A stretch of DNA of 61,817 bases, filler included, from Collodictyon triciliatum (Eukaryota): NCBI GenBank assembly GCA_043381765.1. It is 6 parts of 6 records of this genome, joined end to end, with 100 filler letters (N's around TTAATTAATTAA, not from the genome) between each part and the next. Parts side by side here need not be neighbours in the genome. Positions count along the whole stretch, not along the records: positions 1 to 14,042 come from JBHJMP010000487.1; 5 more parts are not named here. One strand, given 5' to 3'. Below are positions 1 to 26,058 of the stretch, piece by piece. Position numbers and translations under genes: made by a program. How positions within the stretch are numbered: the stretch's first letter is position 1; each line of letters opens with the position of its first letter. Under the pieces are notes generated by a model, which searched no databases, was not told where the DNA came from, and saw only the letters and a program-made list of their open reading frames with translations.

Positions 1-112
1 AGAAAGAAAAGAGAAAGAAAAGAGAAAGAAAAGAGAAAGAAAAGAGAAAGAAAAGAGAAAGAAAAGAGAAAGAAAAGAGAAAGAAAAGAGAAAGAAAAAA
101 AGAAGCTCGCAC

Positions 113-2162
113 AGTTAATAAGACGAGACTGTAGCTGAACGAGTATCGGGCGTAGCGCTTGGTGACATTGTCAAATTTCTTATACTCTCCTGTAATGGGG
201 TCAATCTTCCTCTCACCCTTAAATTCAGCCCTTTGCGGTTCCTATTGACAGTCATGCATAGAGATACTCGTATGAAACCATGGCACAGGAAGAAAATATA
301 AAACAACGTCGCGTTCATCATAATTAAAAGCAAGAAAAGAGCAGCGAGCCACTTCTTCCTGATACTCCATGACATCCCATTTGAAGGCATATTCAGAGGA
401 AGACCGTTTCCAGAACTCGATGAAAAGAGTGGCTAGCAAGGTGCAGACGAGCTTATTAGTTTGATGAAATCTCTACATTTAAAACCTCAAATCGAACATT
501 TCGACGCCAAAAATTGGAGATTATAGAATAATTCTCAGTACCCCAGAGACTCAAAAATAAGGCGAATAAGATAACGATGGGCATTGTTGTGCTGGATGAG
601 AAGGACCTACAAACAAGAAACAAGAAGAAAAAAGAGAAAAGGTTCATGGTGGATTGGCAGGCCAGGATATGTTACTGCGATAAAATATTACTGATAGACC
701 CAAGTCAGCACGGCAAGAAGAGCAGGCAGGAGAATCATTTTATTGTAGAAGGCTTTTTGCGAGAAAAAATTAAAATGCTGATTGTTTTGTAAATTGTTGC
801 TTTTTTTCCGTCAAAAAGATCGCTGATAAAAAGAAAGAATACCAAGCCAGGCGAAGTAGAAAGCAATCTCTTCTCCATAATAGTTTCTCATTCTTGCGAT
901 GATTTTCTCGTAGCTATCATTCATCCAAGAAACACGCAGATTTTGCAGAAGGTCATCGTCATGGAGGGCAAATACTTGTTCCACAAAGCCCTCTTCCATC
1001 ATCGTTCGAACTATCAATTGTAGAATATGAGCGTTCATCGACCATAATTATTTGTTACGATTGCATCGAAACATCAAAAAGCTAATAGCCATATACACTA
1101 TTTCTTTCGTATGAGCTTTTTTTTCCTTCATAAAAAAAGCGTGCACAGAAAATGGGTGACGCATAGAGTTCGCCGACGTATTAATGGGCTATTTGCTAGA
1201 AAAGAAAAATCTCAAAAAGTGCAACTTGTGCTCACCAACACCCTCGCCCTGATGGATCTTGAGGGTGCTCAGAGTGTTGATATCGTCTCCTTTGGCAACA
1301 ACACTAAAGTAGCCGATAAGGACGTAGTGATGAGATAGTGAAAAGTCAGATATTCATAAGAAAAATGATATTAAATTAGGAGCCTAAATCGAATAGACAT
1401 TGAGGAATACTGCTTCGAAAATAACAATTACCCGAATATGCGATTACGGATCATTTGTTGGCGTTCAGAGGAGCTGAAAAATGTATGGACATTTTCATAT
1501 CCATCAAATAGCTCTTTTTTGTCACTGCGAAAGTCCACCAGTTCCCCGTCCTTTGGTTGATTCCCGGAATGAGAAAATACAGTGTTCAGGATAATTGTAT
1601 CGATATAAGATTATCTTGAGTGGGTCAGCAATTAAAACATAAAACATAAAACATAAAGCACAAAGCACAAAGCACAAAGCACAAAGCACAAAGCACAAAG
1701 CACAAAGCACAAAGCACAAAGCACAAAGCACAAAGCACAAAGCACAAAACACAAAACACAGAGATAATCATACGAGTAGCTTTTTCAGAAGTCCCATTTT
1801 TTCGGCGTCCTGATAGAACATGTCGGCCACACCAGATACAAGCATGAGAGTCTAATTGGAGCCGTGAAAAGTATGAGTAAATGGCCAATATGATGTAATG
1901 ATAAATAACAGTATCAACCAAATAATAAGTGACAAAGGTGTGTTTGACTGTGGCTTACTTTTCCCGTAGCCTTCGAGGTCTTAACAAGCGTGACCAATTG
2001 GGCCTTGGAAAACCTTTGGGTCAAAAAGTCAATCATGGACCGAAGAGCTTCACCTTTTTTCTGCAAAGGAGACAAAATCGATCATAAATAATGGAATTAA
2101 ATGGCAAGACATATTTTTAAGGAAAATTAAAAACGAAAATGAGAACGACTATAAGTGTGAAT

Positions 2163-2240
<78 letters not shown>

Positions 2241-2267
2241 GTAATAGTAATAATAATAATATTAATA

Positions 2268-2314
<47 letters not shown>

Positions 2315-2687
2315 GTTGGTAATAATCAGTCCAACCTTATCGTCGGTAAAGGCAATCACGTACTCGCAACAAGCAACAGCCGGTTTTTCAACCTTCACTT
2401 TAAGCGACAAACTGTGCACAAGCCATCTCACGGCAACAGCGTATGGCCTGAAAATTGCAACAGGATAAAATAGCTAGTAGGCACAAAAAAGAAATAAAGA
2501 GAAAAAGAGAAAAAGAGAAAAAGAGAAAAAGAGAAAAAGAGAAAAAGAGAAAAAGAGAAAAAGAGAAAAAGAACAAAAGAGAGAACAAAAGAGAGAACAA
2601 AAGAATTGCACAGGCCGAATATCAGACACACTTGAACTCAGCAGGAGCAGCCTTCTCCGCGGCATTTGTAGCTCCAACCTCGGCCAT
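113..2687 (-). CDS. Anoctamin/TMEM16 family protein, paralog A (multi-exon, 3' end runs off the window start)
   Basis: GT-AG exons join from ATG 2687 (MAEVGATNAAEK...) through FFSSSERQQMI, FVEQVFALHD...RMRNYYGEEIAFYFAWL, ATLFIEFWKRSSSEYAFKWD and EPQRAEFKGERKIDPITG, all typical anoctamin motifs. Last visible exon ends at 113. Confidence 0.9.
2165..2313. repeat. (AAT)n microsatellite, intronic
   Basis: Direct reading; lies in an intron of anoctamin A. Confidence 0.9.
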
Positions 2688-3346
2688 ATGGAAAGCAGTG
2701 ATCCGATCAGACGACCACAACGCTGCATTCAAAAAAAAAAAAAAAAACAGATCACGCCAGGAAGACAGACGGCCACAGGAATCTCCAACCACCCGCACGA
2801 GTGAGACAACGACCACGAAACGCCCCACCCAAGGAAGCAACCAGTCTGCGGGGACTCTGGGCAGCCCAACCACGACTCCGTTTTACACACGCAGCTGGCC
2901 GACCGCCTCTCCTGATTCTTCACGCACCCAAACACTAGCCTCAGCGGCCGCCTGCTTCTGATTACACGCCCATTCCTTTGAAGCCCCTATTGTGGATTTT
3001 ATAAGTTGCCTTTTGCCCAACAAACACAGGCGAGGTGGAAGATTCAGTTCATATGTCTATCTCTGGAAATTTCTTGAAAAAATGGGGTACTCTAATGTGG
3101 GTTGTGATGTCTACTCTGCAGAGAAGGAAATGGGCCGTCATTTTTGGTATGAATTCATGTATCCATTTGTGGAAAGCTTCGTTTCTGTGTGCTCGACTTG
3201 TCAGAACGGGCGCAAAGCACATCTCTTATTTGCTTACATAGTCTTCTGCTCCAGTCAACTCCTTTTTCTTTTCTTTTCTTTTCTTCTTTTTCATGTTGCC
3301 ATGTCTGCTATATCAGAGCCAGTTTTATCCATGGGCACGTTCATCA

Positions 3347-6089
3347 TTACTGAAGTGTGGATGGGTCGTAGACCTGCACAGTGAACAGAACGATGCCGCT
3401 GTTTCTGTCGCGAATGCAGAACAAGAAAGGGCGGTCGAACGTCAATGGAATCACGACGGGTCGGACAAAAGAGCGCGACATCATCACTGCAGTGGCAGCA
3501 GCGGCTTCGGTGCCCTCCTCATTGATCTCAACCACCGCCTGCAGAATTTCCGGGATAAAAAGGTAAGTTTTTTCTTATTAAAAAAATAAAATAGAAGCAC
3601 AAGATACTTTCTCAAAAGAACGAGGGTCTTATTTTGGTTGTTGGGAACAGACAGTACGATGAAAATAGCTCGTATGTTCTTAGTTGTGTGCATCAAAATG
3701 TTTGTCTACTTTTATATCCAAAAAGATAGTTCGCAAATGAAAAAGAAATAAAACCATTCACGTTACGATATAAGGGACAGAGTGTCGAATAAGGAAAACA
3801 AACAACCAATCAGGTAGATTTAGGAATGAATGCGAGCATAGGAGTACCTTGTGGATCACTTCGCTGATGAAAAGGCCTTTGGAGTTCTCTGACATGGCGG
3901 AGAAATCAGCCTCATGAGTGAATGCGTCGTTGATACCGGCTTTCTGGAGGCTCTTGACCAGTTGCGAGCTTCCTTCAATCTATATTAAGATGATTTCAGA
4001 TCAGATTGCTGAACAAAGCCCGACAAAGGCCGAACAATTTTATTTTATTATCATTTCTTTTTATATGTAAAAATGGAATAGAGAAGTATAATTCAGCAAT
4101 GGAGTAAAAAAAAAAAAAAACCTTGAACTTTGGCACAGTGAGTCGAATCGTTGTTGTAGAGTTTCCAGTTTTTGTCCAAGAATCCCATTCTCCAAATGCA
4201 ACAGGCAGAGTATCTGCGAGAAGGTTTCCGGGTTTTGGAAGCAAAAAGGTGGCTACAAGTCCATGCTCACTCCCGCTTGTTTGATACGGAAGATCGATAG
4301 CCTGGCGATGAGCACAATTTTAAGAGGCGATGAAGAATTAGCTGAATGTTGCTGACTTGGGACTCATCTTCATAAATAGACTTGAAAGCTAAATCAAACT
4401 CATACTTATTTTGTGAAGCATGAATCTCATGCAGTTAATATACTTTCATTATTATTTTGCAAGAAAATTATTTCATTAAATTGATTGGATGATGAATTAC
4501 ATCAAACAAAGTGTGTTCATAGTGCGCAATTTTTCGTTGCATATTCATCATCGGCACTTGAATATATTCTCGGTCGCTGGTGGGAGAAAAGTAACCCAGC
4601 TCAGTATCGGTCGGATCGAATTTGTTTGCCCAGGAACCCTATGCATGATATGGTTAAAAAAAATAAATCAAGAGGGATGCACCTCATGCGAAGTTATGAT
4701 ACGAAATTATGTGGATTACAAGTGGATCTCGCAGATGACTCGTCCGAAGGAAATATTGCAGGTAGATGGCTTTCTTTTATCATGTTCAAACCTTAAAGTA
4801 AATTCCATTCAATATCACTGCCTCGACATTTGCCGGAGTCTGTGAAAGCAGTTTTTGGATTTTCTGCTCGGTTGCATCAGAAACCCAGCTATTAACCTTT
4901 GGCACGATTATACGCAACGTTAGTACGATCAAAATAGAATCGAACGGTAATAAGAGCCTCGGTTGCGATGAGCAAGATATGAATCTATTCACTTGCTCTA
5001 CGACGTCTCCTGCCAATGGGAAAACTGTCCCGTGGTATTGAGTCTTCAGAACGTCCAGAAATCCTCGCTTTGGTTCGCCACACGATGCCTTCAGCAAAAC
5101 CTGGTGTTCAAGAGATTCGGGAAAGAGTTTGTCTGATTTGGTCCATTTTTACTGCTATGTGACGATTGGATAGCTTCAGAAAGCCATACATCATGGATGT
5201 GGTCTTTTGTTAAATGCGTTCGCAACGCCCAGACAGAAAACATGGCAGAATCTGTTGAGGCAACCACATACACCCACACACAATTCCACTTTACAAAAAA
5301 TACCTACTGTAAAATCATTAATCGAAAGAGTTGTGAACATATTTTACCGCATTGGCAATCTTGAGCCTGTTGCCCCCGCTGAGTGCCGCAGTGAGCTTCT
5401 GTTGAAGAGCCTCGTTCCCTTGATTAAGCTGTAATATTGGTTGGGATTTTTTTTGCTTATTTACTCGCATGTTACATTGTTTGTTTTCCTTTTTTTTTTA
5501 AAAAAAAAACTACAGATAATTCATGGGGAATATCACAAAATGGCAAAAACGAAAAAACAGGCAAATATTAAGATGTTTAAATATGATACAGAAATAATGT
5601 AAAAATCATAAATAAATAAATAGTTTTCTATATACTGCGTTGACGTCAGAGGAAAAGCCAAGTGCAGAGACGATTTCCTGCTGTGTTTTCCCAACTCCGC
5701 CGTTTGCAGCGACGCTGGAGACGAAGGAATGCATAGTTTCAATAATCACGAGCCAGTTGTTGATAAGTCAAGCAAATTCTAAAAACACAATGAGAGCAGC
5801 AAAAAAAAAAAAAAAGAACGCTGCAGTCATTGCATCCAATAAGCCCAGCTCCCTATATAAATCTAGAAACAGCCACGCCGCACACAAACCATTACTTCGC
5901 CTCTTTCTGAATCTTGAGATGAAAGGAAAAAAAAAACTGAAAACTTGGATGATAAAAATTGAGTGTATCGTAAGGTGCGGCACACAACCTGAGTGCAAAG
6001 TAGATGGAAATCGGCCCCATCGCATAGTTTTCCGCGCCGACTTTCGCAGTGGCCAGAAACAGTTGGAAACCCAGTCTGTTCATTTCCAT
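3347..6089 (-). CDS. Serpin (serine protease inhibitor), multi-exon
   Basis: N-terminal MEMNRLGFQLF...NYAMGPISIYFAL; VNSWVSDATEQKIQKLL...AVILNGIYFK; LTVPKFK; C-terminal VEINEEGTEAAAATAVMMSRSF...FDRPFLFCIRDRNSGIVLF, stop at 3347. Start may be the upstream ATG at 6134. Confidence 0.93.
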
Positions 6090-6617
6090 GGCTGCTACAA
6101 AGAAACATGTGTTAGCCTCTGCCTCCAAGTCCATCTCTACTCCTCTTCTCTTCTCTACTCCTCACACGGCTGTGATTTCCGTCGTGCTGCTCCGCTTTGG
6201 CCTGCTTCGTCTGATTTGTCTCTGCATTGCTGTCAAAACGAAGAAAAAAAACTAGTAAAAATATGAAAAAAAAAACGAAATGCTAAATATTCCAAATATA
6301 GATACTAAGCGAATAAATTCCATCAGAGACTTATATAGAAAATATACGAATAATTTTGTTTATTTTTACTAATTCTGGATAAGCTCATTGACCCGTTTTC
6401 GGTGCTTTTGTTTGTTTTTGGCGCATATCATTGGTCGACATCCTTTGCTGAACGAGGCTGTGTCATTCGCAATCAGAACGTGTTTTGCTTGCGTGCTTCG
6501 AAGCAGCCCATTTTCCAGACTGACCCATGTTTATGCCGTCCCTCATTTTCTTATGCGGAGGCCTGGCTCTCGTGAATGTGTCGGCAATATTACAGCGATG
6601 CACCCTCGTTCTCGTTC

Positions 6618-6712
<95 letters not shown>
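6618..6712. repeat. (GTT)n microsatellite between the divergent serpin and anoctamin-SMP starts
   Basis: Direct reading. Confidence 0.9.
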
Positions 6713-6713
<1 letters not shown>

Positions 6714-6817
6714 TATTTTTACTTTCTTCTTTTTTTCACCAGTTTTAATTTTATTCTGGTTGATTTCTGGACATGAATAACGATTACACTTTCTTTGTCG
6801 TTTAATCGAAAGGAAGT

Positions 6818-7286
6818 ATGGATGCAGAGTTTGAAGAGCCTCCAAAAAAGTCTGGTTCTCGCCTTCTGAGGAAAGTCCTGTGGTAAGCCTTTCCGTCTTC
6901 TTTGACGTTTTCCTTCTCATTGTGACATAGTTTAGGCCAATTGGCTCTCTTTGTTGCTCAGAAACAGCGCTTCGGTTGTTTACAGCATTTTTCGATTCCA
7001 ACCTGCTTTTTTAGCTTCTCTTTTTAAAAGAAATTGAGAATTATGTTAACCTGCAAGATATTTTGCAAGATAGATTTATTGAATTATTTCAAAATCTTTA
7101 TTATCAACACACACTCTCTCTCTTTATTCTCAGGCTGTCTTCTCTGAAAGCTCGTCTGAGTCGCTTGCTTTTGGAAAATCGACAGAAGGCTTCGTCTGAG
7201 GGAAATCTACCGGAGTGGGTCATTGTTGTCAAGAGTGCGAATGTAAGTAAACAAGCATCAAAAGTTTTACAATTACTATTATTACT

Positions 7287-7358
<72 letters not shown>

Positions 7359-10300
7359 GAATGTTCAATAGCCCATATCATTCATAATTATATTTTTACA
7401 TGTGCTTATCTACTTGATTGAAGGTTGTCCACACACCAGACTTGGTGGCATTCCAAAACACTGTCCGAAAACACCGACTACACATCGAACCACTGGAAAA
7501 CCTTGAAGCAGGAACAGTGTGTTTCTATTCCCCTTAGTTATTGTTTTGTTGTATTTATGAAAGAAATATTTGGTGCTCTAATTAGCAGTCGTATATCGGA
7601 TGCTTTGGACGAAGGGGAAAATAATGTTCGACTGTCATACTCACACAGGTTACTTTCTTCGTCTACGCTGAAAAGGACTTCCTCTATGAACAGGCAGAAA
7701 AAAAGAGAATGATAAAGCCACTCAAAGTATATCTACGAAGCATATTTGGATATTTAAGATGTTGCTCCTTTGTTTTCTCATATTGGAGATGCATTTCGAT
7801 GCAATCTATTTATTATAACAAGTAGCTCATTTTATTTTTGTTATATATCAGTGACCATAACAATTTTCAAATGACAGCTTTGTCTGATTAGTATAATTAT
7901 GTCAAAGCAACCAAAAGGAACCTCGTATGTTCCTATCAACACAATAGCAACTGCAACAGCTTTCTAATTGGTTTTTTAAACATATATTAGAGTGGAGGTG
8001 TTGCTTTCTTCCGCTTGAAACAGAAAGATCGATTCTCGGATTATGATAAACCAGACATTTTCTTCACCAGCCACGAGCGCCAAAAGATTTGCTATGATAT
8101 TCTTTCGAAGTCAGCCTATCAATAATATACAGATTATGATTTCTTCATGTGATACTGAAAGAAATCCGATTTTCATCAATAAACTGCATCTATAGCATCA
8201 AGGTCGAAGCGACCGATGTACAAGCCATTAAGTCCGTTAAATTGGAATCTGGTCAATATATGCGTAAGACGAATTATTTCACAATGGTTGTCTTTCTTTT
8301 CTTTTCTTTTCTTTTCTTTTCTTTTCTTTTCTTTCTTTTCTTTCTATTCTTTCTTTTCTTTCTTTTCTTTCTTTTCTTTCTCTTTTTTCTCTTTTTCTCT
8401 TTTTTCTTTCTTTTTCTCTTTTTTCTCTTTTTTCTCTTTTTTTCTCTTTTTTCTCTTTTTTCTCTTTTTTCTCTTTTTTCTCTTTTTTCTCTTTTTTCTC
8501 TTTTTTTCTCTTTTTTCTTTTTTTTTTNNNNNNNNNNNNNNNNNNNNNNNNNNNNNNNNNNNNNNNNNNNNNNNNNNNNNNNNNNNNNNNNNNNNNNNNN
8601 NNNNNNNNNNNNNNNNNNNNNNNNNNNCTTTTCTTTCTTTTCTTTCTTTTCTTTCTTTTCTTTCTTTTCTTTCTTTTCTTTCTTTTCTTTCTTTTCTTTC
8701 TTTTCTTTCTCTTCTTTCTCTTTTTTCTCTTTTTTCTCTTTTTTCTCTTCTTTCTCTTCTTTCTCTTCTTTCTCTTCTTTCTCTTCTTTCTCTTCTTTTT
8801 TCTTGTTCTTTTTTCTTTTTTCTTTTTTCTTTTTTCTTTTTTCTTTTTTCTTTTTCTTTCTTTTCTTTTTCTTTCTTTTCTTTTTCTTTCTTTTCTTTTT
8901 CTTTTTCATTCCTTTCTTGAAAAAAAAAAATTACACAAAATCGAATGTTCGATTGAAACATATTCAATCAAAATTTTACCCGATGTAAGGCTGAGTTATC
9001 ACACCAGCTCAAAATGGTACTATTCTCATGACACAGTTCAAAGACTACTGGAGACGAATTTCATCAGCGACATCTTCTGCATGCATGAAGAAGGTGCTTT
9101 GGATAAACTACGGTTCAAGATGTTGAATGATGGACCGCGCGAGCTCCTCAACCATATCCATGAGTACTTCGGGGATGAAATTGCCTTTTACTTCGGGTGG
9201 CTTGGTACATCCCTTTCCTGAGAGACATATTCTACCAGACAGTCTCTGTAATAACCAATGTGGCCTATTCAATGATTAAAAAAAAAAATCCTTATTTTAA
9301 GATTTTATGAATGTTCTGCTGGTTATTCCTGCGTTGATCGGAGCAATCACCTACTTCCAAACGTAAATAAAACATAGTAATTCGCAGTCGAAATTTTTTT
9401 AATTCTTTTCATTTACGAAAATCCTGGTATTGTTAAACTACATCTTGGTGCTGATTGTCCATGTAAATTATTCTTAACGTCTTTTGTTGTTAATTTTATT
9501 CATGGGTTCAAGGTGGAACAAACTGGATTCACGCTTACTGCTCTACTACCCACTCCTTACTTCTTTATGGGGTGACTTTTCTACCTCATTTTGCCCTATT
9601 GTTCATCATCACAATTATAAGTTTTTGCACAAGTGTCTATTTCCACGGCATTATTGAACTTATTAAGCGTTATGTATATTATCAAGGGACTGTTGCCATC
9701 GAACTCTGGAAGCGTAAGAGTGCAGTCTTATCTTACCGATGGGGAATCCTATCAGGGAATTCCAGAAAGGTGCCTTTCAAATCGTTTTTTTTTTTTTAGA
9801 GTTCGATTCGAAAATAAATCGGGCAGACTTCATCTGTTTTGCAACCACATCATAATTATGGCTAAAGTGAACAAGATTTTGATGCATATTCATGCTTTTG
9901 CCCAGGATGAGTCAGAAGAAGGCAAGAGATCTCAAGAAGAGGATGCCAGCCAAATAAGAGCGAGGATATGGATTTACTTTGTGAACTATATCGTAGTTAT
10001 TTGCGCTGTAAGGATTTTTACGTCTACTGAAACAAATTTTGGATAACTTTTCATTGTGCAATTGATTGGGGGTTTACCTTTCACCTTTTTTTAAAAAGTT
10101 TTTCATGTACAAAATTGTTTGTCCTAATAGACAAGCATTCCCATTGTTACGACGGCCGTAAAAATACACATTACCCATCTGTACTCCTCGGATACCGTCG
10201 TCAGCATTATTATTTCGATCTTTCATACATTGTTGATGAGAGCACAGTCAACAGTAATTTTTATTTTAATCTATTAATTTTTATTGTTTTCTGTTATAGC

Positions 10301-13300
10301 TAGAATTTTATTCCGAAAAAATAGTGGATTTTGGTATTAGAATAGGATAGTTACGCAGTATATACATATTAGGCTTACCAGCAATTAAGCGTTAAGCTGA
10401 GTCAATATGGTTTGTAAGCACCGACCTATGTCTTTTCGAATCGATGGTCAATCCTTATGGAAAAAAAATATAACCTTCTGAAGAAATCCTATTATGTAAT
10501 GAATTCGTTGGCTTCATTAGAAAATCACACAAACGACGCCACGTATCGCAAACATATGACAATTAGGCTGTTTATTTTTGAAATTCCAAACAGGTATGCT
10601 TCTTGTTTAATTATTTCTCACTTCAAGGTTTGAGTTTGTAGATAATTCATGTTGTTTTGGAGAAAATAGGTTTCTTGGCTTCCTATACACAGGATTTTAC
10701 TTGCAGGATCTTTTCCTTCTCCGACGTCAGCTAAGTGCGTACCGCTCATTTTTGAAATGTTATGCACGCATCTCGTACAAATTTAACGGAAAAATGTTTT
10801 TATGCTGGTTTTTTGCTCTTCATTTCTCATATACATACTTGCGCAGTTGTATTCTTCTTTGTCGATCAAATCCAAGGCACATTGACCGAATATGTCATAC
10901 CGTAACGCTTGCGTCTCATATTGCTTACTTATCCTGAACACTTAGAGTTTAAGTATTCTTTAAAACATAATAACTGTATTTTGATTATGTAGATATCTGT
11001 CCGTTAAATATAAATGGAAGAATGTTTTGGAAATGGAAACGGAGGATGATCAAGATGCAAAAGCACCAGCACAGACATCGGCACCAGGAGGGTCTCACGT
11101 TCCGGCATCAAAGGCATTAGAGTCGCCCAATATGTCAAATATCTCATCAAAACCTGCAATATTCCTGATGTCTTTTTAATGTAGATCCAAGCGAACTCTA
11201 AGCTTATTCCTTACGACAGCACCTACATGGACTATTTTGAGATAGGTTGGAAAAGAAAAATAACCAGATGATATGTTTATTTGCACTTTTTTTTTTTTTG
11301 TGGATATCATAAAGCTGTTTTGGTCATTTGGTCATTTTTTCATGCACTTTGATTTTTAACAAAAGAATAATTTTGATCACTCTCAAATAGTTCTACAGTT
11401 TGCCTTGGTCTCTTCTTTTGCCACGGCTGCGCCGATAGCGCCCCTTCTAGCATATTTTAACAACATCATCGAATGGAACGGAGATTTATACAAACTCGTA
11501 AACATCCATCGTGTGAGTAATTGTGGTACATTTCTCTTTAAAACACTTTTGCATTTACTTGAAATATTAAATGGTGATGTATACAGAGGCCTGTGCCCTA
11601 TTCTGCGGATGGGATAGGTATTTTTTCTCAGTTTCATTTTTCCTACTTTTGCTTCTTTTTTTTCCTACATATATTTAGGAATGATATTGTTCACTTTTCA
11701 TTCAATAATATCTATTATCAATATTTCTGAAAAATGTATTTTCTATCTTAATTTTATTTATGATTTCAACATATACTTAATATTAAGTATATGTTGATAT
11801 CAATTTATGAATTTATTTATTTATTTGATCCTTCGCTTCATCTCAAGTATGATTTGCTTACTTACTCATCCTTCTTAAGGAGTATGGGTCCAAGTCCTGG
11901 AAATCACATCTTTGGTCTCTGTCATTATCAATGCAGGCCTCTCTTATGTTTACCTCGTGAATGTTATTAAACCCAACGATGAATGGTCGCACGCGTCATA
12001 CCTGGTGGCAATCGTCTTATTTGAGGTAAATCATAAAGGAAAATAATTCTAATAATTATAGATTGTATAAATATCAATTAAAATGAAGCAGATAGCCACA
12101 CTATTTAATTTTATTTCAAAAGAGAAGATCCAAAAATCATCAGAAACGAATCATTATAGTGTTCCTAATTTTGAAACTGGCTCCGAATTTTTGTAGCATG
12201 TCATATATGGGTTGAAGTCATGGGCTGCTTATGCTATTCCAGATATTCCAGAGTGGGTTAACAAAGAGTTGAATTTACAAAAGGCTCGATTTAAGTCTGG
12301 AGAAAAGGTGCATTTCGTCTAATTGATTAGAATATAACATTATGAACCAGATGCAAAGGCAAAAACATTCGGCTAATAAAATCTGTATTTGAATAATTTT
12401 TCCTATAAAATGCCCACTAGATCTTTTCCAAGAGAAACAATCAAATTTTCAACTCATTTGAGGATGACCTCATGCGTGTCCTATCCAATATTCACACTCT
12501 GGGTTTGTCCACGACACCTCGCTTGCATGTTCTCATAAGTATGGCTTTCTGCTACTTAGCAGGATACTATGGCTTTGGAATTGTCATTTCTGGTTTGATA
12601 TACACCATCTACAAAAGAAGACAATTGAGATGTAGGGAAAAGCTCAGCCGTGAGTTGGTCGCCGAGCAGCAAGGGAAATTGTATTTGAACGCAAAGGTTT
12701 TGCAATTTGCTCGATTGTGACGAATGAAATATTATATTGGTAGTACTGTAGCGTTGTTGTATTTTTTTTAAGGGATTATCTTCTAATTTGTATCTACAGA
12801 TGTTCCAAGACCCTGAAGGGGTTGAATGGCTCAATTACGTGATGGATTCCATATGGAAAAATTACAGCGGAAATTTTGAGTTGATGATAAAAAACCTCGT
12901 GAACTACTATCTCAACAGCTATCGACCGGCAATTATGGTATTCACTGCATTTTGACGCAAGAACTTTATGATTCTGAGTTCATTTCCGCTGATGTTTCAC
13001 AATGATTGATCATTTCTACAGAGAAGCCTTGAGCTTGGCACGTGCGACTTGGGAACACGCGCCCCAGTCTTTTCAAACATGAAAGTGGCCGAGCCAGCGA
13101 AAGATCGCTCTGTTGTAATTTTTTATAAAAACTATGCTTTTATTCGTTCATATTTTTTTCAATTATCTATTGGATTAGTTTCATAAAGAAAGGAGGAGGT
13201 TATGTCGCATTCATACACCACTCAATCTTCTCTGAATATATGAGCAGTCGAATTCTTTGATTTATTTAATTTATTGTTTTTTTCTCAGTAATAAGAATAA

Positions 13301-13909
13301 AAAAAAACTCACAAAATATCGCAGTGCTTGACAGTGGATGTCGAGACCAACAGTAAGGCTAAGCTCATCATAGTCGCAGGCATGGGTGTCAACGTCAATC
13401 TGAGTATTGATGAAATCATGTTGAAAGGAAAGGTAATTCGATAAAGCAAATTTTGCAGAATACTGGATTTGTTTACCGACTACCAACAAGAATTTTGCAA
13501 GATAAATATTTTCATCGATTGTATTTGCAGCTTCGTCTTGAGCTTAAGCTTGTGGACGAATCTCCATATCTCGGGCTCATCAGTTTCCAATTCGTGGGTG
13601 AGCCGGAACTCAACTACAGCATAACCCCCCTCGGAACAACAGACATTATGGATATTGAATTCATAGCTGAGTCGATTCGGAGTATGATTCGTGTAAGGCT
13701 ATAGTGGCATGATATTCACAGCTACATGCGTATAAGATTACTTTAAATTACCATATTTACTTCTGCTCTTTTGCAGGACCTGATTCGCTTCTATTTAGTG
13801 GAGCATTCAATAAAAATTCCACTTGCTAGTTCGGAGGTCCAAGAGTCAGGTTACCAGTTGGTCTTCAGTATAATTGGTGCTAGCAACCTACCAGAACCCG
13901 AAATGACTA
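6818..13909 (+). CDS. Anoctamin/TMEM16 fused to membrane hairpin + SMP domain + partial C2 domain (3' end lost at contig end)
   Basis: ATG 6818 (MDAEFEEPPKK). Anoctamin motifs IHEYFGDEIAFYFGWL, IELWKRK, DYFEI-VLQFALVSSFATAAPIAPLLAYFNNIIEWNGD, FEHVIYGLKSWAAYAIPDIPEWV. Phase-0 GT-AG introns then lead in frame to exons 12421-12696, 12800-12937 (DPEGVEWLNYVMDSIW), 13022-13114 (CDLGTRAPVF), 13325-13432, 13531-13692 and 13777-13909 (LVFSIIGASNLP). Confidence 0.85.
11766..11797. repeat. Perfect 32-bp palindrome in an intron
   Basis: TCAACATATACTTAAT followed directly by its reverse complement ATTAAGTATATGTTGA. Confidence 0.9.
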
Positions 13910-14042
13910 GTAAGCGATTGCCTAATAATAATTCTTTTGTTTTCTTCTTTTTCTTCTTTTTCTTCTTTTTCTTCTTTTTCTTCTTTTTCTTCTTTTTCTT
14001 CTTTTTCTTCTTTTTCTTCTTTTTCTTCTTTTTCTTCTTTTT

Positions 14043-14142
14043 NNNNNNNNNNNNNNNNNNNNNNNNNNNNNNNNNNNNNNNNNNNNTTAATTAATTAANN
14101 NNNNNNNNNNNNNNNNNNNNNNNNNNNNNNNNNNNNNNNNNN
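14043..14142. other. Artificial contig linker (N44-TTAATTAATTAA-N44)
   Basis: 12-mer with stops in all six frames embedded in Ns. Confidence 0.95.
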
Positions 14143-14249: not shown

Positions 14250-17200
14250 ATGGTCACTAAAATTCCGTGACGAGCCGATGGAAAAACTGTTCAGAGAGCA
14301 GTACATTCGCCACTCGCTGCTGCGTCTTCAAATTGTTGGCATTATCGGAACTTTGTGCGCGTTATACTTTACAATCGATCAGGCTCATTACTCTACTGAT
14401 TTTCTAATCGTCCGGGCAATACTTACTTCTCTATTGGGGTTGATATCGATTATGATGAACAAATATGCCATGAAGAACATGAATCTGGTTCTTTATCTCT
14501 CGGACTTTCAAATAATAATCGGGTTTCTAATTTTGGTTTTTGGTCGAGTTGTTGAGGATACTAATGGGGCATCAGGATTGGGTATTCTGATTATCGGATG
14601 TATCTATGGATGCGTGAGACTAGACTTCCGCCACTCTTTGTTTTGTGCAGTATCTTGTTTCCTCATATTCACCATTTCAACAGCTTCTTATTCCAGTTCA
14701 AAGACAACCGTCATGTCAATGATTTGTATCATGGCTGGTCTCTTTTCCCTTACATCAACGGGTTACTACCTAATGCTATACATAAAAAACACATTTTACC
14801 GACAGCTCTGGCTAAATAGAGAGAAATTTTCCATTCAAAAGGAGAAATTAAAAGTGACAAGATTAGCAGGGTTAGATGAATTCATTTATATTGCTATTTC
14901 CTTCAGTATTATTCTATAAGTGATTCAAAATATTCTCAACTCCTTCACTGTAATAATCGTGAATTAGTTGTATCGTACCCATACCAGTGGTTGAGAAGTT
15001 ACAGAACGAGCTTAATCGCCTTAACGTAAAAAAAAAAAAAACAACTTAAATTATGAATGAACAGGCTGATTTGATTTCTGGCTCTGTTCTCTATTCATTT
15101 ATGCTTTAGGCCATTTCCATGATGAGAAAACGCAATCTTATCATTTTTTCATTATCAATATTACCAGGCCGGATTGTGTGAAAGTGTTCTGATAGCAGAA
15201 AGTTTTCAGGATTCAAGTTTCATGTTTCTCTCTATTGGAAGGTATGATTATCAATAAATCGTGACATTTACGTAGACTTGCGGTATATTATGTAATCATG
15301 AAAACCAAAGGCCTTGAATCTCCCTCAAATTAATTTTCTTTCAGTAATAAGTCACCATATTTTCTATAGCCAACTAATTAGTGAAAAAGACTATTCTGCG
15401 GTCGAGCTCGTAAGTGATTGAGGCTCATAATTTCTTCTACTTTTACTTTTACTTTTACTTTTACTTTTACTTTTACTTTTACTTTTACTTTTACTTTTAC
15501 TTTTACTTTTACTTTTACTTTTACTTTTACTTTTACTTCTACTTCTACTTCTACTTCTACTTCTACTTCTACTTCTACTTCTACTTCTACTTCTACTTCT
15601 ACTTCTACTTCTACTTCTACTTCTACTTCTTCTATACTATACTATACTATACTATACTATACTATACTATACTATACTATACTATACTATATGATTATTA
15701 TTTCATGATTAGTTAGGAATGCTGTGTGGTATTATAATATTGATAAATGTCGAGTAGATGCCTAAACACATCGGTACACATCTAGGTAGATGCCATCAAT
15801 AGATTTGTGTCCCTAATTGACCACTTGTGCAACGAATACGGTGTCGAGCGAATTAAGTCCATTGGAAACTATGTGTTGGTAATCATTCTTTGATGAATTT
15901 TACTTTTCATTTAAATAGTGCATCTATAACTACTATATCCATCCAATCAAGTATTAAAAAAAAAACCTAAACATTCACGTTTAGATCGCTAGTGGTGTTC
16001 CTGTACCTTGTAGAAACCATGCCCAGCGATTACTTCTCCTTGCCATTAACATTATGAAAAGGCTACCAGAACTCCGCTCCCAGCACCGGTTGCTGAAGGA
16101 TGCATATATCCGCATTGGAATTAACTCTGGTCCCTGTATTGCTGGTGCCATCGGTATCACACGCCTAGCGTATGATGTCTGGTGTGTAAGAAGCGTCATA
16201 TACACTTATTTCAAGTTATTCGTGTCACTACATTATATAAGTTCATTCAGCTGACATCATCTTAATTGTGCAAGCATAATGCTTTATTTTTTCCTCTCTA
16301 TTCTTCATTTTCTGGTTGTTTTTGAAAGATGCAATTTTTCCTTTTCAAATGAGTCAATGGACATCATAATTGATTTATTATCTTATGAACCTCCCTCTTA
16401 GTATTATCTAATTTAATACATATGATGAAAACATCAGGGGAGATAGTGTTAACGTATCAAGTAGAATGGAACTTCATGGAGAAGATAATCATATACATGT
16501 AACTAACGTTGTTTTTCAACATTGTAATGGAGAATTCAAGTTTATCTCTCGCGGAATTATAAATGTTAAAGGAAAGGTATTAAACATGTCGAATCCGTCA
16601 ACGCCATGATTATTTTGAGTTATCATGTTTAAGTCGTGACGTACACTCAGAATGGCATCAATCTTTGCTTATTTATTTACTTGTATTAAGGGTCCTATGG
16701 AAACATACTTTCTGGATTTAAATACTCATCTGCATCTAGCCCTATCCTCTCACATTAAGGAAGATATTGCAATAAATCGTAACCATTCATATTGCCGGGT
16801 TTCATAGATACATGTGTACTAATTTATCTGTGCATATTTTTTCCGTTTTAGCCGTTTATATGAACAGACTTAAGTAAGAGTATAAATGGGAATGTCATAT
16901 AGGCGTCCCAAGGCTTGCTTCACATGAGTCTTTATCAGAAGAGGATGTCATTTTTATGAAGCCGAAGCTGTAATAACTTATTCCTAAAAGAAAAAAATAT
17001 ATAGAAATGAAGTTAGCCAAGCATGTAATGCACCGTTGTAAAATAATTGGGGATTTCTATTATAATAGCAAAATGAACCCGTTCACTTTTGAGTTTGAAG
17101 ATATCAATACTGAGGAGGAATATATTTCAAGGTACATATCTAATTTCATTATATGGCGTCTTTCCTCATTGTCCCAAACGTACAATCTAAAGTAACTAAG

Positions 17201-25976: not shown

Positions 25977-26058
25977 GACACTTTGGCCGAGTGGTTAAGG
26001 CGGCAGCCTGCTAAGCTGTTTCCTTCTGGGAGCGAGAGTTCGAATCTCTCAGGTGTCG
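25977..26058 (+). tRNA. tRNA-Ser (anticodon GCT)
   Basis: Acceptor stem GACACTT/AGGTGTC, D-arm TGGCCGAGTGGTTAAGGC, anticodon arm GCAGC-CTGCTAA-GCTGT, long variable arm, T-loop GTTCGAATC, downstream oligo-T Pol III terminator. Confidence 0.95.

Follow-up and report, generated by a model that had tools for sequence, protein, structure and literature searches.

Introduction

The coupling of lipid scrambling to lipid transfer is an open question at membrane contact sites. Among the described systems, yeast Ist2 with Osh6/7 is the closest in logic to the gene reported here. According to a 2026 review, Ist2 is a TMEM16 homologue of the endoplasmic reticulum (ER) whose C-terminal extension spans the distance to another membrane and recruits a lipid-transfer protein there; it scrambles lipids and can sustain phosphatidylserine transfer by Osh6 in proteoliposomes, the only setting in which the review reports the Ist2-Osh6/7 coupling, with no evidence yet in cells (PMC13286939). 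In the present study, a stretch of 61,817 nt of DNA from the eukaryote Collodictyon triciliatum (assembly GCA_043381765.1), in the following called the window, was analysed. It contains a gene that very probably encodes, as one product, a TMEM16K-like anoctamin fused to a hydrophobic hairpin, an SMP domain and a C2 domain. While the carrier of Ist2 is a separate polypeptide of the ORP type, bound to a long disordered tail, the SMP domain of the fusion would be part of the same chain, and a hairpin and C2 stand where Ist2 has the disordered tail and a polybasic end. Each part is an unremarkable member of one of two known families; the novel element is their combination.

Both families are well described. 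TMEM16K (human anoctamin-10) is an ER scramblase whose subunits dimerise on the cytosolic side through the C-terminal TM10 and alpha10, and its mutations are linked to ataxia, as stated in PMC6718402. Like the fusion, it comprises an N-terminal cytosolic and a transmembrane domain, the acidic ligands and a TM2/TM10 site, whereas its chain ends soon after alpha10 and its N444 is a Gly in the fusion. For tricalbins and extended synaptotagmins (E-Syts), an ER hairpin anchor, dimerisation of the SMP domain, weakly selective transfer of glycerolipids and a hold on the plasma membrane by C2 domains are described in PMC13286939. The fusion shows the same order, with about 35 linker residues between hairpin and SMP and with C2 after the latter, but the hairpin is N-terminal in E-Syts and tricalbins, while here it comes after a complete protein of presumably ten helices. 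Three or five C2 domains are given for known E-Syts in PMC8093936, which itself reports a two-C2 form; in comparison, one C2 was recognised in the ortholog of the fusion described below, and the Collodictyon copy reaches only as far as the first C2 strand.

The same logic of an inter-membrane carrier beside a leaflet re-equilibrator is described for ATG2 with ATG9, TMEM41B and VMP1 (PMC13286939). These pairs differ from the fusion in that they are separate polypeptides, that the carrier is of the bridge type and not of the shuttle type, and that the scramblase folds are unrelated. VPS13A and XK form a further pair of bridge carrier and scramblase, to which the same differences apply. To our knowledge, all known pairs of scramblase and carrier consist of separate polypeptides.

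Gene model and ortholog

The gene comprises 27 exons on the plus strand, from an ATG at 6818 to 13909, and extends to the end of scaffold 1 (1-14042), by which it is cut on its 3' side at 14042 (Table 1). Exons were modelled manually: the three forward frames were read and GT-AG pairs that keep the frame were chosen, so that the GT-AG status of all 26 introns (74-773 nt) holds by construction. The resulting model protein has 948 residues, with its 3' end missing. Less certain were the start of exon 13, for which 10484 was chosen as the sole frame-keeping acceptor, and the donor of exon 16 (11099 or 11024), where the longer loop showed the better fit to the ortholog and TMEM16K; both choices were borne out by an almost gap-free alignment to the ortholog. 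All peptide strings and coordinates quoted in a preliminary description of this locus were recovered. The same holds true for the end of the anoctamin, which is divided by a splice site (...LFE / HVIYGLKSWAAYAIPDIPEWV...): exon 21 (12197-12307) terminates with ...IPDIPEWVNKELNLQKARFKSGEK without a stop codon and is followed, as described, by a phase-0 GT-AG intron.

The exon downstream of this intron (exon 22, 92 residues) was used as a HMMER query against 1,835,955,588 representative proteins. The single match was a protein of Diphylleia rotans with 1263 residues (P0001; E 6.1e-13, 41% identity), in which residues 8-90 of the exon correspond to residues 675-757 and thus to the middle of the chain. 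This protein is a Trinity/TransDecoder open reading frame (ORF) from one assembled transcript in EukProt. The other listed isoform deviates from it at six N-terminal positions, and both of the two are full-length fusions.

The domains of the ortholog were recognised on the intact chain. Pfam matches were obtained for Anoctamin at residues 230-653 (1.4e-92, 311 bits, profile positions 1-457 of 460), for SMP_LBD PF17047 at 765-942 (5.4e-5, 23.2 bits, below the cut-off of 27 bits), for SMP_MUG190-like PF25669 at 855-942 (6.8e-10, 39.3 bits, above the cut-off) and for C2 at 953-1052 (8.8e-16, 58.5 bits). Among solved structures, the best match was TMEM16K (5oc9, 3.3e-55, residues 117-654), and the SMP-C2A-C2B fragment of E-Syt2 (4p42) matched residues 764-1071 with 6.2e-16. 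A hydrophobic stretch at 702-732, found by a crude hydropathy scan, matches the Collodictyon hairpin. The last 201 residues gave only a chance-level Pfam match and no C2 up to E 10. In a complex prediction with two copies of the SMP region of the ortholog, a score of 0.35 was obtained, compared to 0.33 for the control.

The spliced Collodictyon model is collinear with the ortholog from the first residues to the last exon, with 414 of 945 columns identical (44%), and the alignment crosses the junction without a break. In blastp comparisons, the anoctamin half showed 42% identity (1.1e-170) and the half comprising tail, hairpin and SMP 48% (1.5e-106), and tblastn of the ortholog on the window returned the same exons in the same order, while its residues 976-1263 gave nothing significant elsewhere in the window. 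The single polypeptide of anoctamin, hairpin, SMP and C2 that had been suggested is therefore supported, since the same chain is present on one Diphylleia transcript and conservation continues across the joint. As had also been noted, no assembly gap separates the two halves: 8628-14042 is free of N. A gap of 100 N (8528-8627) falls within intron 6 and hides no exon, because the ortholog alignment is unbroken at this point. In contrast, the statement that the halves follow each other without a linker did not hold, since about 52 residues lie between PEWV and the hairpin.

A mis-assembled scaffold in combination with a chimeric Trinity contig in Diphylleia could also produce such a picture, given the high fragmentation and the many microsatellites of the Collodictyon assembly and the ability of Trinity to join neighbouring or overlapping transcripts. 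This is extremely improbable. Genomic DNA and independent RNA, two different data sets, agree on order, frame and linker length, which argues against an artefact; the uninterrupted sequence from 8628 to 14042 does so as well, and a chimera formed by read-through would not retain an open and homologous frame across the spacer.

Family identity of the two halves

The Collodictyon gene was scanned against Pfam exon by exon and not as a spliced protein. The Anoctamin profile PF04547 matched five of the ten exons of the first scan in strictly collinear order (E 1e-9 to 0.017), at profile positions 1-16, 183-212, 334-373, 385-432 and 433-457 of 460. The match to 334-373 (exon 11393-11512, 1e-9, 38.3 bits) exceeds the 28-bit cut-off by itself, and the most C-terminal one, 433-457, is exon 21. 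Of the other five exons of this first scan, two matched an SMP profile, one gave a chance-level match to a domain of unknown function and two gave none. Exon 5 gave a weak match to Anoct_dimer PF16178 (E 0.005, below the cut-off), while five further anoctamin exons and exon 27 (13777-13908) gave no Pfam match when scanned singly.

For the second half, SMP_MUG190-like PF25669 matched exon 23 (E 0.082, profile positions 1-39) and exon 26 (E 3.5e-6, 27.1 bits, positions 154-207 of 232), the latter under the cut-off of 35 bits; exons 24 and 25, also scanned singly, gave no Pfam match. Together with the match of E-Syt2 to the ortholog, these two exons bear out the SMP assignment and speak against the refuting case of the preliminary description, a lack of any SMP profile match; the collinear exon matches confirm the presence of both families expected from the preliminary description. 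Both families are indicated by the exons of the window, while the question of one chain is not answerable from the window alone. The hairpin exceeds the length of one membrane span and would not suffice for two, and it presumably resembles the hairpin of E-Syts and tricalbins. It lies internally, about 680 residues from the N-terminus and behind a full anoctamin, and would consequently not be the sole N-terminal anchor. The last exon (13777-13909), in which LVFSIIGASNLP is located, starts after ...ttttgcag and aligns to residues 931-975 of the ortholog, overlapping the start of the Pfam C2 match; it is followed by a GT donor and by the scaffold end in (TTCTT)n.

The junction between both halves

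Without splicing, the frame of exon 21 would continue as GEK-VHFV to a TAA at 12320-12322, whereas the spliced frame is free of stops. Splice sites were scored with leave-one-out matrices derived from the 26 introns of the gene itself; the junction donor reached 5.7 bits and ranked 7th of 26. The 12307/12421 joint in Collodictyon is what we infer from these data together with the ortholog.

Several observations weigh against a fused gene. At the junction, the intron has a weak acceptor, with -2.2 bits and rank 25 of 26; the unspliced anoctamin would end after only five codons, with an AATAAA 55 nt downstream of the TAA, and Met 12472 with the hairpin 17 residues on looks like the normal N-terminus of a stand-alone E-Syt. 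The only ortholog is an assembled transcript and not a cloned cDNA, with one recognised C2 and 211 C-terminal residues beyond it without a domain. In the Collodictyon gene, the matches of SMP exons taken singly lie below the Pfam cut-off, and the C2 consists of one strand only before the scaffold ends. Finally, further fused relatives were not found by protein word-index, Atlas and metagenome searches.

The junction features would be expected if two adjacent genes were present, an anoctamin ending in ...GEKVHFV* and a separate E-Syt-like gene starting from Met 12472, with a GT-AG pair between them by coincidence. In addition, an open frame of 17 codons in front of the Met is ordinary by itself in AT-rich DNA. 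The comparison to Diphylleia makes this explanation very unlikely, since there both halves are found in one ORF on one transcript. Met 12472 aligns to an Ile of the ortholog in an ungapped alignment of exon 22, and the similarity extends upstream of it: in fixed register, the 17 preceding codons reached a BLOSUM62 score of 11 against the ortholog, a value of at least 11 being obtained for six of 1246 ortholog 17-mers (mean -15.6, SD 9.4; p ~0.005) and a score of 11 in 0.57% of 100,000 shuffles (p 0.0057). These codons contain no ATG and start right after a TAG, while exon 21 supplies the correct phase; their translation would therefore require splicing from an exon further upstream. The linker is also of conserved length, with about 52 residues between PEWV and the hairpin compared to 54 after PKWI in the ortholog. 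Two genes would leave a spacer of only about 150 nt to house a 3' UTR (untranslated region), a promoter and a 5' UTR, whereas the other two intergenic spacers on scaffold 1 comprise about 700 and 1200 nt. The AATAAA at 12375 was considered as a telling poly(A) signal and rejected, because five of the 26 introns carry this hexamer.

A fused mRNA could also coexist with a stand-alone anoctamin, an E-Syt-like protein or both, and the separate forms could even predominate. The first would arise by intron retention or early polyadenylation, the second from an internal promoter with translation starting at Met 12472. The weak acceptor, the intronic stop with AATAAA and the retained Met would all fit, and such a layout is expected soon after a fusion by read-through. 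Both listed Diphylleia isoforms are fused over the full length and Met 12472 is not conserved, so that mixed forms appear unlikely. Altogether, the fused gene in combination with the working proposed below is assumed to be probably the best explanation as a whole.

Concerning the origin of the gene, all seven introns from intron 20 onward (12026-13776) are in phase 0, among them the intron at 12697-12799 (GT-AG), while the preceding 19 introns are of mixed phase. The lengths of exons 21-26 are all divisible by three. The phase-0 run in the distal half fits a module that was joined by an intron-mediated fusion. The gene was probably born when an anoctamin was read through into a complete E-Syt-like gene next to it, with a new intron of phase 0 joining the two. 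Such an origin is in line with the retained hairpin and start-like Met, with the phase of the joint and with the distal phase-0 introns.

Table 1. Location of the features in the window (fusion gene, assembly features and other genes).
Feature	Position	Strand	Remarks
Exons 1-6, N-terminal cytosolic domain	6818-8263 (6818-6882, 7134-7242, 7424-7516, 7649-7726, 7991-8109, 8196-8263)	+	align to ortholog residues 1-187
Exons 7-21, anoctamin transmembrane domain	9037-12307	+	
Exons 7-11	9037-9204, 9302-9362, 9513-9571, 9687-9769, 9906-10007	+	
Exons 12-16	10131-10253, 10484-10593, 10670-10734, 10847-10901, 10993-11098	+	
Exons 17-21	11185-11245, 11391-11512, 11587-11617, 11880-12025, 12197-12307	+	
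Exon 15, TM6 QGTLTEY	10847-10901	+	Glu ligand kept, Gly at the Asn position
Exons 17-18, TM7 DYFE and TM8 NNIIEWNGD	11185-11512	+	four acidic ligands
Exon 21, end of TM10, IPDIPEW motif, start of cytosolic tail	12197-12307	+	no stop codon
Junction intron	12308-12420	+	113 nt, GT-AG, phase 0, GC 0.30
Exon 22, linker, alternative Met 12472, hairpin, basic/coiled linker	12421-12696	+	
Hydrophobic hairpin	12523-12612	+	30 residues, Gly/Tyr-rich central turn AGYYGFG, followed by KRR
Exons 23-26, SMP domain	12800-12937, 13022-13114, 13325-13432, 13531-13692	+	phase-0 introns flank all four
Exon 27, SMP end (HSIKIPLA) and first C2 strand (YQLVFSIIGASNLP)	13777-13909	+	
Long microsatellites near or inside the fusion gene	6617-6711, 7283-7358, 8290-8910		
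Scaffold joints	14043-14142, 29996-30095, 41439-41538, 47923-48022, 52829-52928		
Anoctamin paralog	1-2081	-	runs off the window start
Serpin gene	~3350-6100	-	between both anoctamin genes
Membrane-bound class III nucleotidyl cyclase	14250-16251	+	scaffold 2
tRNA-Ser (anticodon GCT)	25977-26058	+	

Calcium binding sites

The acidic Ca2+ ligands had been described as intact, which was found to be correct for the five acidic residues but not for the site as a whole: five of the six canonical ligands of TM6-8 are kept, while the Asn of TM6 is replaced by Gly in both species. In the alignment of the ortholog to TMEM16K (5oc9), Gly is found at N444 and Glu at E448, and the acidic ligands are kept at D497, E500, E529 and D533. 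The Collodictyon protein is identical to the ortholog at all ligand positions of TM6-8, and the segments YDSTYMDYFEI and NNIIEWNGDLYKL are the same in both. The additional TM2/TM10 site of TMEM16K (E259, K262, D615) is kept as ELWK and IPD, the Asp of the IPD in exon 21 being aligned to D615. The TM6-8 ligand positions of TMEM16K presumably correspond to those of the ligands in TMEM16A. The latter are N650/E654, E702/E705 and E734/D738 in the account of PMC8640346, while PMC6718402 names D615 as a ligand of the TM10/alpha10 Ca2+ site of TMEM16K. The numbering of TMEM16K was checked against residues mentioned in PMC6718402 (C412, S415, I419, L428, Q431, S432, L436, S440, N444, L503 and Y507). 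Conservation of the TM10 site and of the acidic ligands at an overall identity of only 44% speaks for a working Ca2+ site, whose affinity may differ because of the Gly on TM6.

Proposed function

The following working would be possible for the fusion protein. The TMEM16 domain, presumably with ten helices, would reside as a dimer in the ER membrane, like TMEM16K, and binding of Ca2+ at the TM6-8 site would cause scrambling of phospholipids between the leaflets. The hairpin would re-anchor the chain in the cytosolic leaflet beside the TMEM16 domain. The SMP domain may then take glycerolipids from this leaflet and shuttle them to another membrane, which one or more C2 domains would hold, while scrambling would at once refill or relieve the leaflet that is drained or loaded by the SMP. 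In the dimer, each subunit would carry its own SMP shuttle and C2 bridge beside the groove. The C-terminus of TMEM16 proteins and both ends of the E-Syt hairpin are cytosolic. The resulting topology is coherent, with a cytosolic anoctamin tail, a hairpin dipping into the same leaflet and a cytosolic SMP and C2.

For the coupled scrambling and transfer, the chances are about even. The exchange of the TM6 Asn for Gly in both species counts against it, and scrambling, transfer, localisation and coupling of the fusion protein are all properties that we infer from the two families. The chain could be fused as proposed while its TMEM16 part acts without coupling, either as an ion channel or mainly as an ER anchor and dimerisation platform. 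The TM6 exchange would be in line with this, and channels do exist among TMEM16 members. Nevertheless, this explanation is rather improbable: the closest solved relative is an ER scramblase (TMEM16K, 3.3e-55), both the TM10 site and the five acidic ligands persist at 44% identity, and a domain of presumably ten helices would be a costly anchor given that the hairpin is retained.

The natural fusion, present in two organisms at an identity of only 44%, offers comparative evidence that both activities belong together. With it, the idea of coupling, so far applied to ORPs and to carriers of the bridge type (ATG2, VPS13), reaches SMP shuttles as well. Having both activities in one chain would also fix their stoichiometry, which is of use for reconstitution, structure determination and mutational uncoupling. 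If the fusion is read more generally as a "Rosetta stone", ER scramblases of the TMEM16K type and SMP shuttles of the E-Syt type would work together as a conserved pair in eukaryotes at large. Within the fused chain, the SMP would be loaded directly where the scramblase groove opens to the cytosol, and scrambling (TM6-8) and bridging (C2) would be switched on together by a single Ca2+ signal. We consider this generalisation doubtful at present. If it were true, carriers of the shuttle type would depend on a dedicated scramblase in the same way as those of the bridge type, and human TMEM16K would be predicted to interact physically or genetically with E-Syts.

Search for related proteins

Word-index searches for longer proteins yielded 136 candidates for the SMP exon 13531-13692 and 70 candidates for the junction exon, none of which scored. 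With residues 640-960 of the ortholog, the ortholog itself was the only one found among 1343 candidates. In the ESM Atlas, the whole ortholog led to one anoctamin-only cluster (0.84), and residues 560-1060 led to E-Syt/tricalbin clusters (~0.8), with none of the ten listed clusters including Anoctamin; both results serve as leads only. A metagenome scan with the ortholog as query gave 29 pattern matches, none of which was confirmed. With a degenerate TM8 motif, three contigs were obtained, in which tblastn matches covered 13-33 residues and no SMP part. The motif IEWNGDLYK was located at 874-972 (minus strand) in L001, at 4027-4074 in L002 and at 69-107 in L003, and L001 (GC 0.32) possibly contains a distant anoctamin exon.

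A printed TMEM16-SMP fusion was not found in searches of the main text of papers, mostly from journals outside subscription. The sequence of the ortholog is already public in EukProt without a functional name; what is new is the recognition of the fusion.

Other features of the window

The window consists of six scaffolds that were linked artificially by five joints of 100 nt each (N44-TTAATTAATTAA-N44; Table 1), so that the neighbourhood across the joints is meaningless. The DNA is eukaryotic in character, with a G+C content of about 30-45% across most of the window, plentiful microsatellites and many short exons. Microsatellites hold most of the scaffold ends and the internal 100-N gaps. Near and within the fusion gene, a (GTT)n tract precedes the start codon, intron 2 contains (ATTT)n, and the gap in intron 6 is surrounded by (CTTTT)n-like runs.

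Two further genes were observed on scaffold 1. The exons of the anoctamin paralog matched Anoctamin (2e-7 and 5.1e-5) and Anoct_dimer (0.0016) as well as residues 127-311 of the ortholog; any SMP-C2 tail of the paralog would lie outside the window. The last exon of the serpin gene (3350-3574) matched Serpin PF00079 with 3e-15 and contains a typical reactive-centre hinge, EEGTEAAAATA.

On scaffold 2, the catalytic exon of the cyclase matched Guanylate_cyc PF00211 with 1.1e-11, while its multi-span exon showed a very weak match to AC_N; the first exon or exons are lost at the scaffold start. The cyclase exons (14250 onward) were considered as a continuation of the fusion gene and rejected, since both their scaffold and their frame differ from those of the gene. 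The tRNA-Ser was the sole Rfam match at the gathering score in the window.

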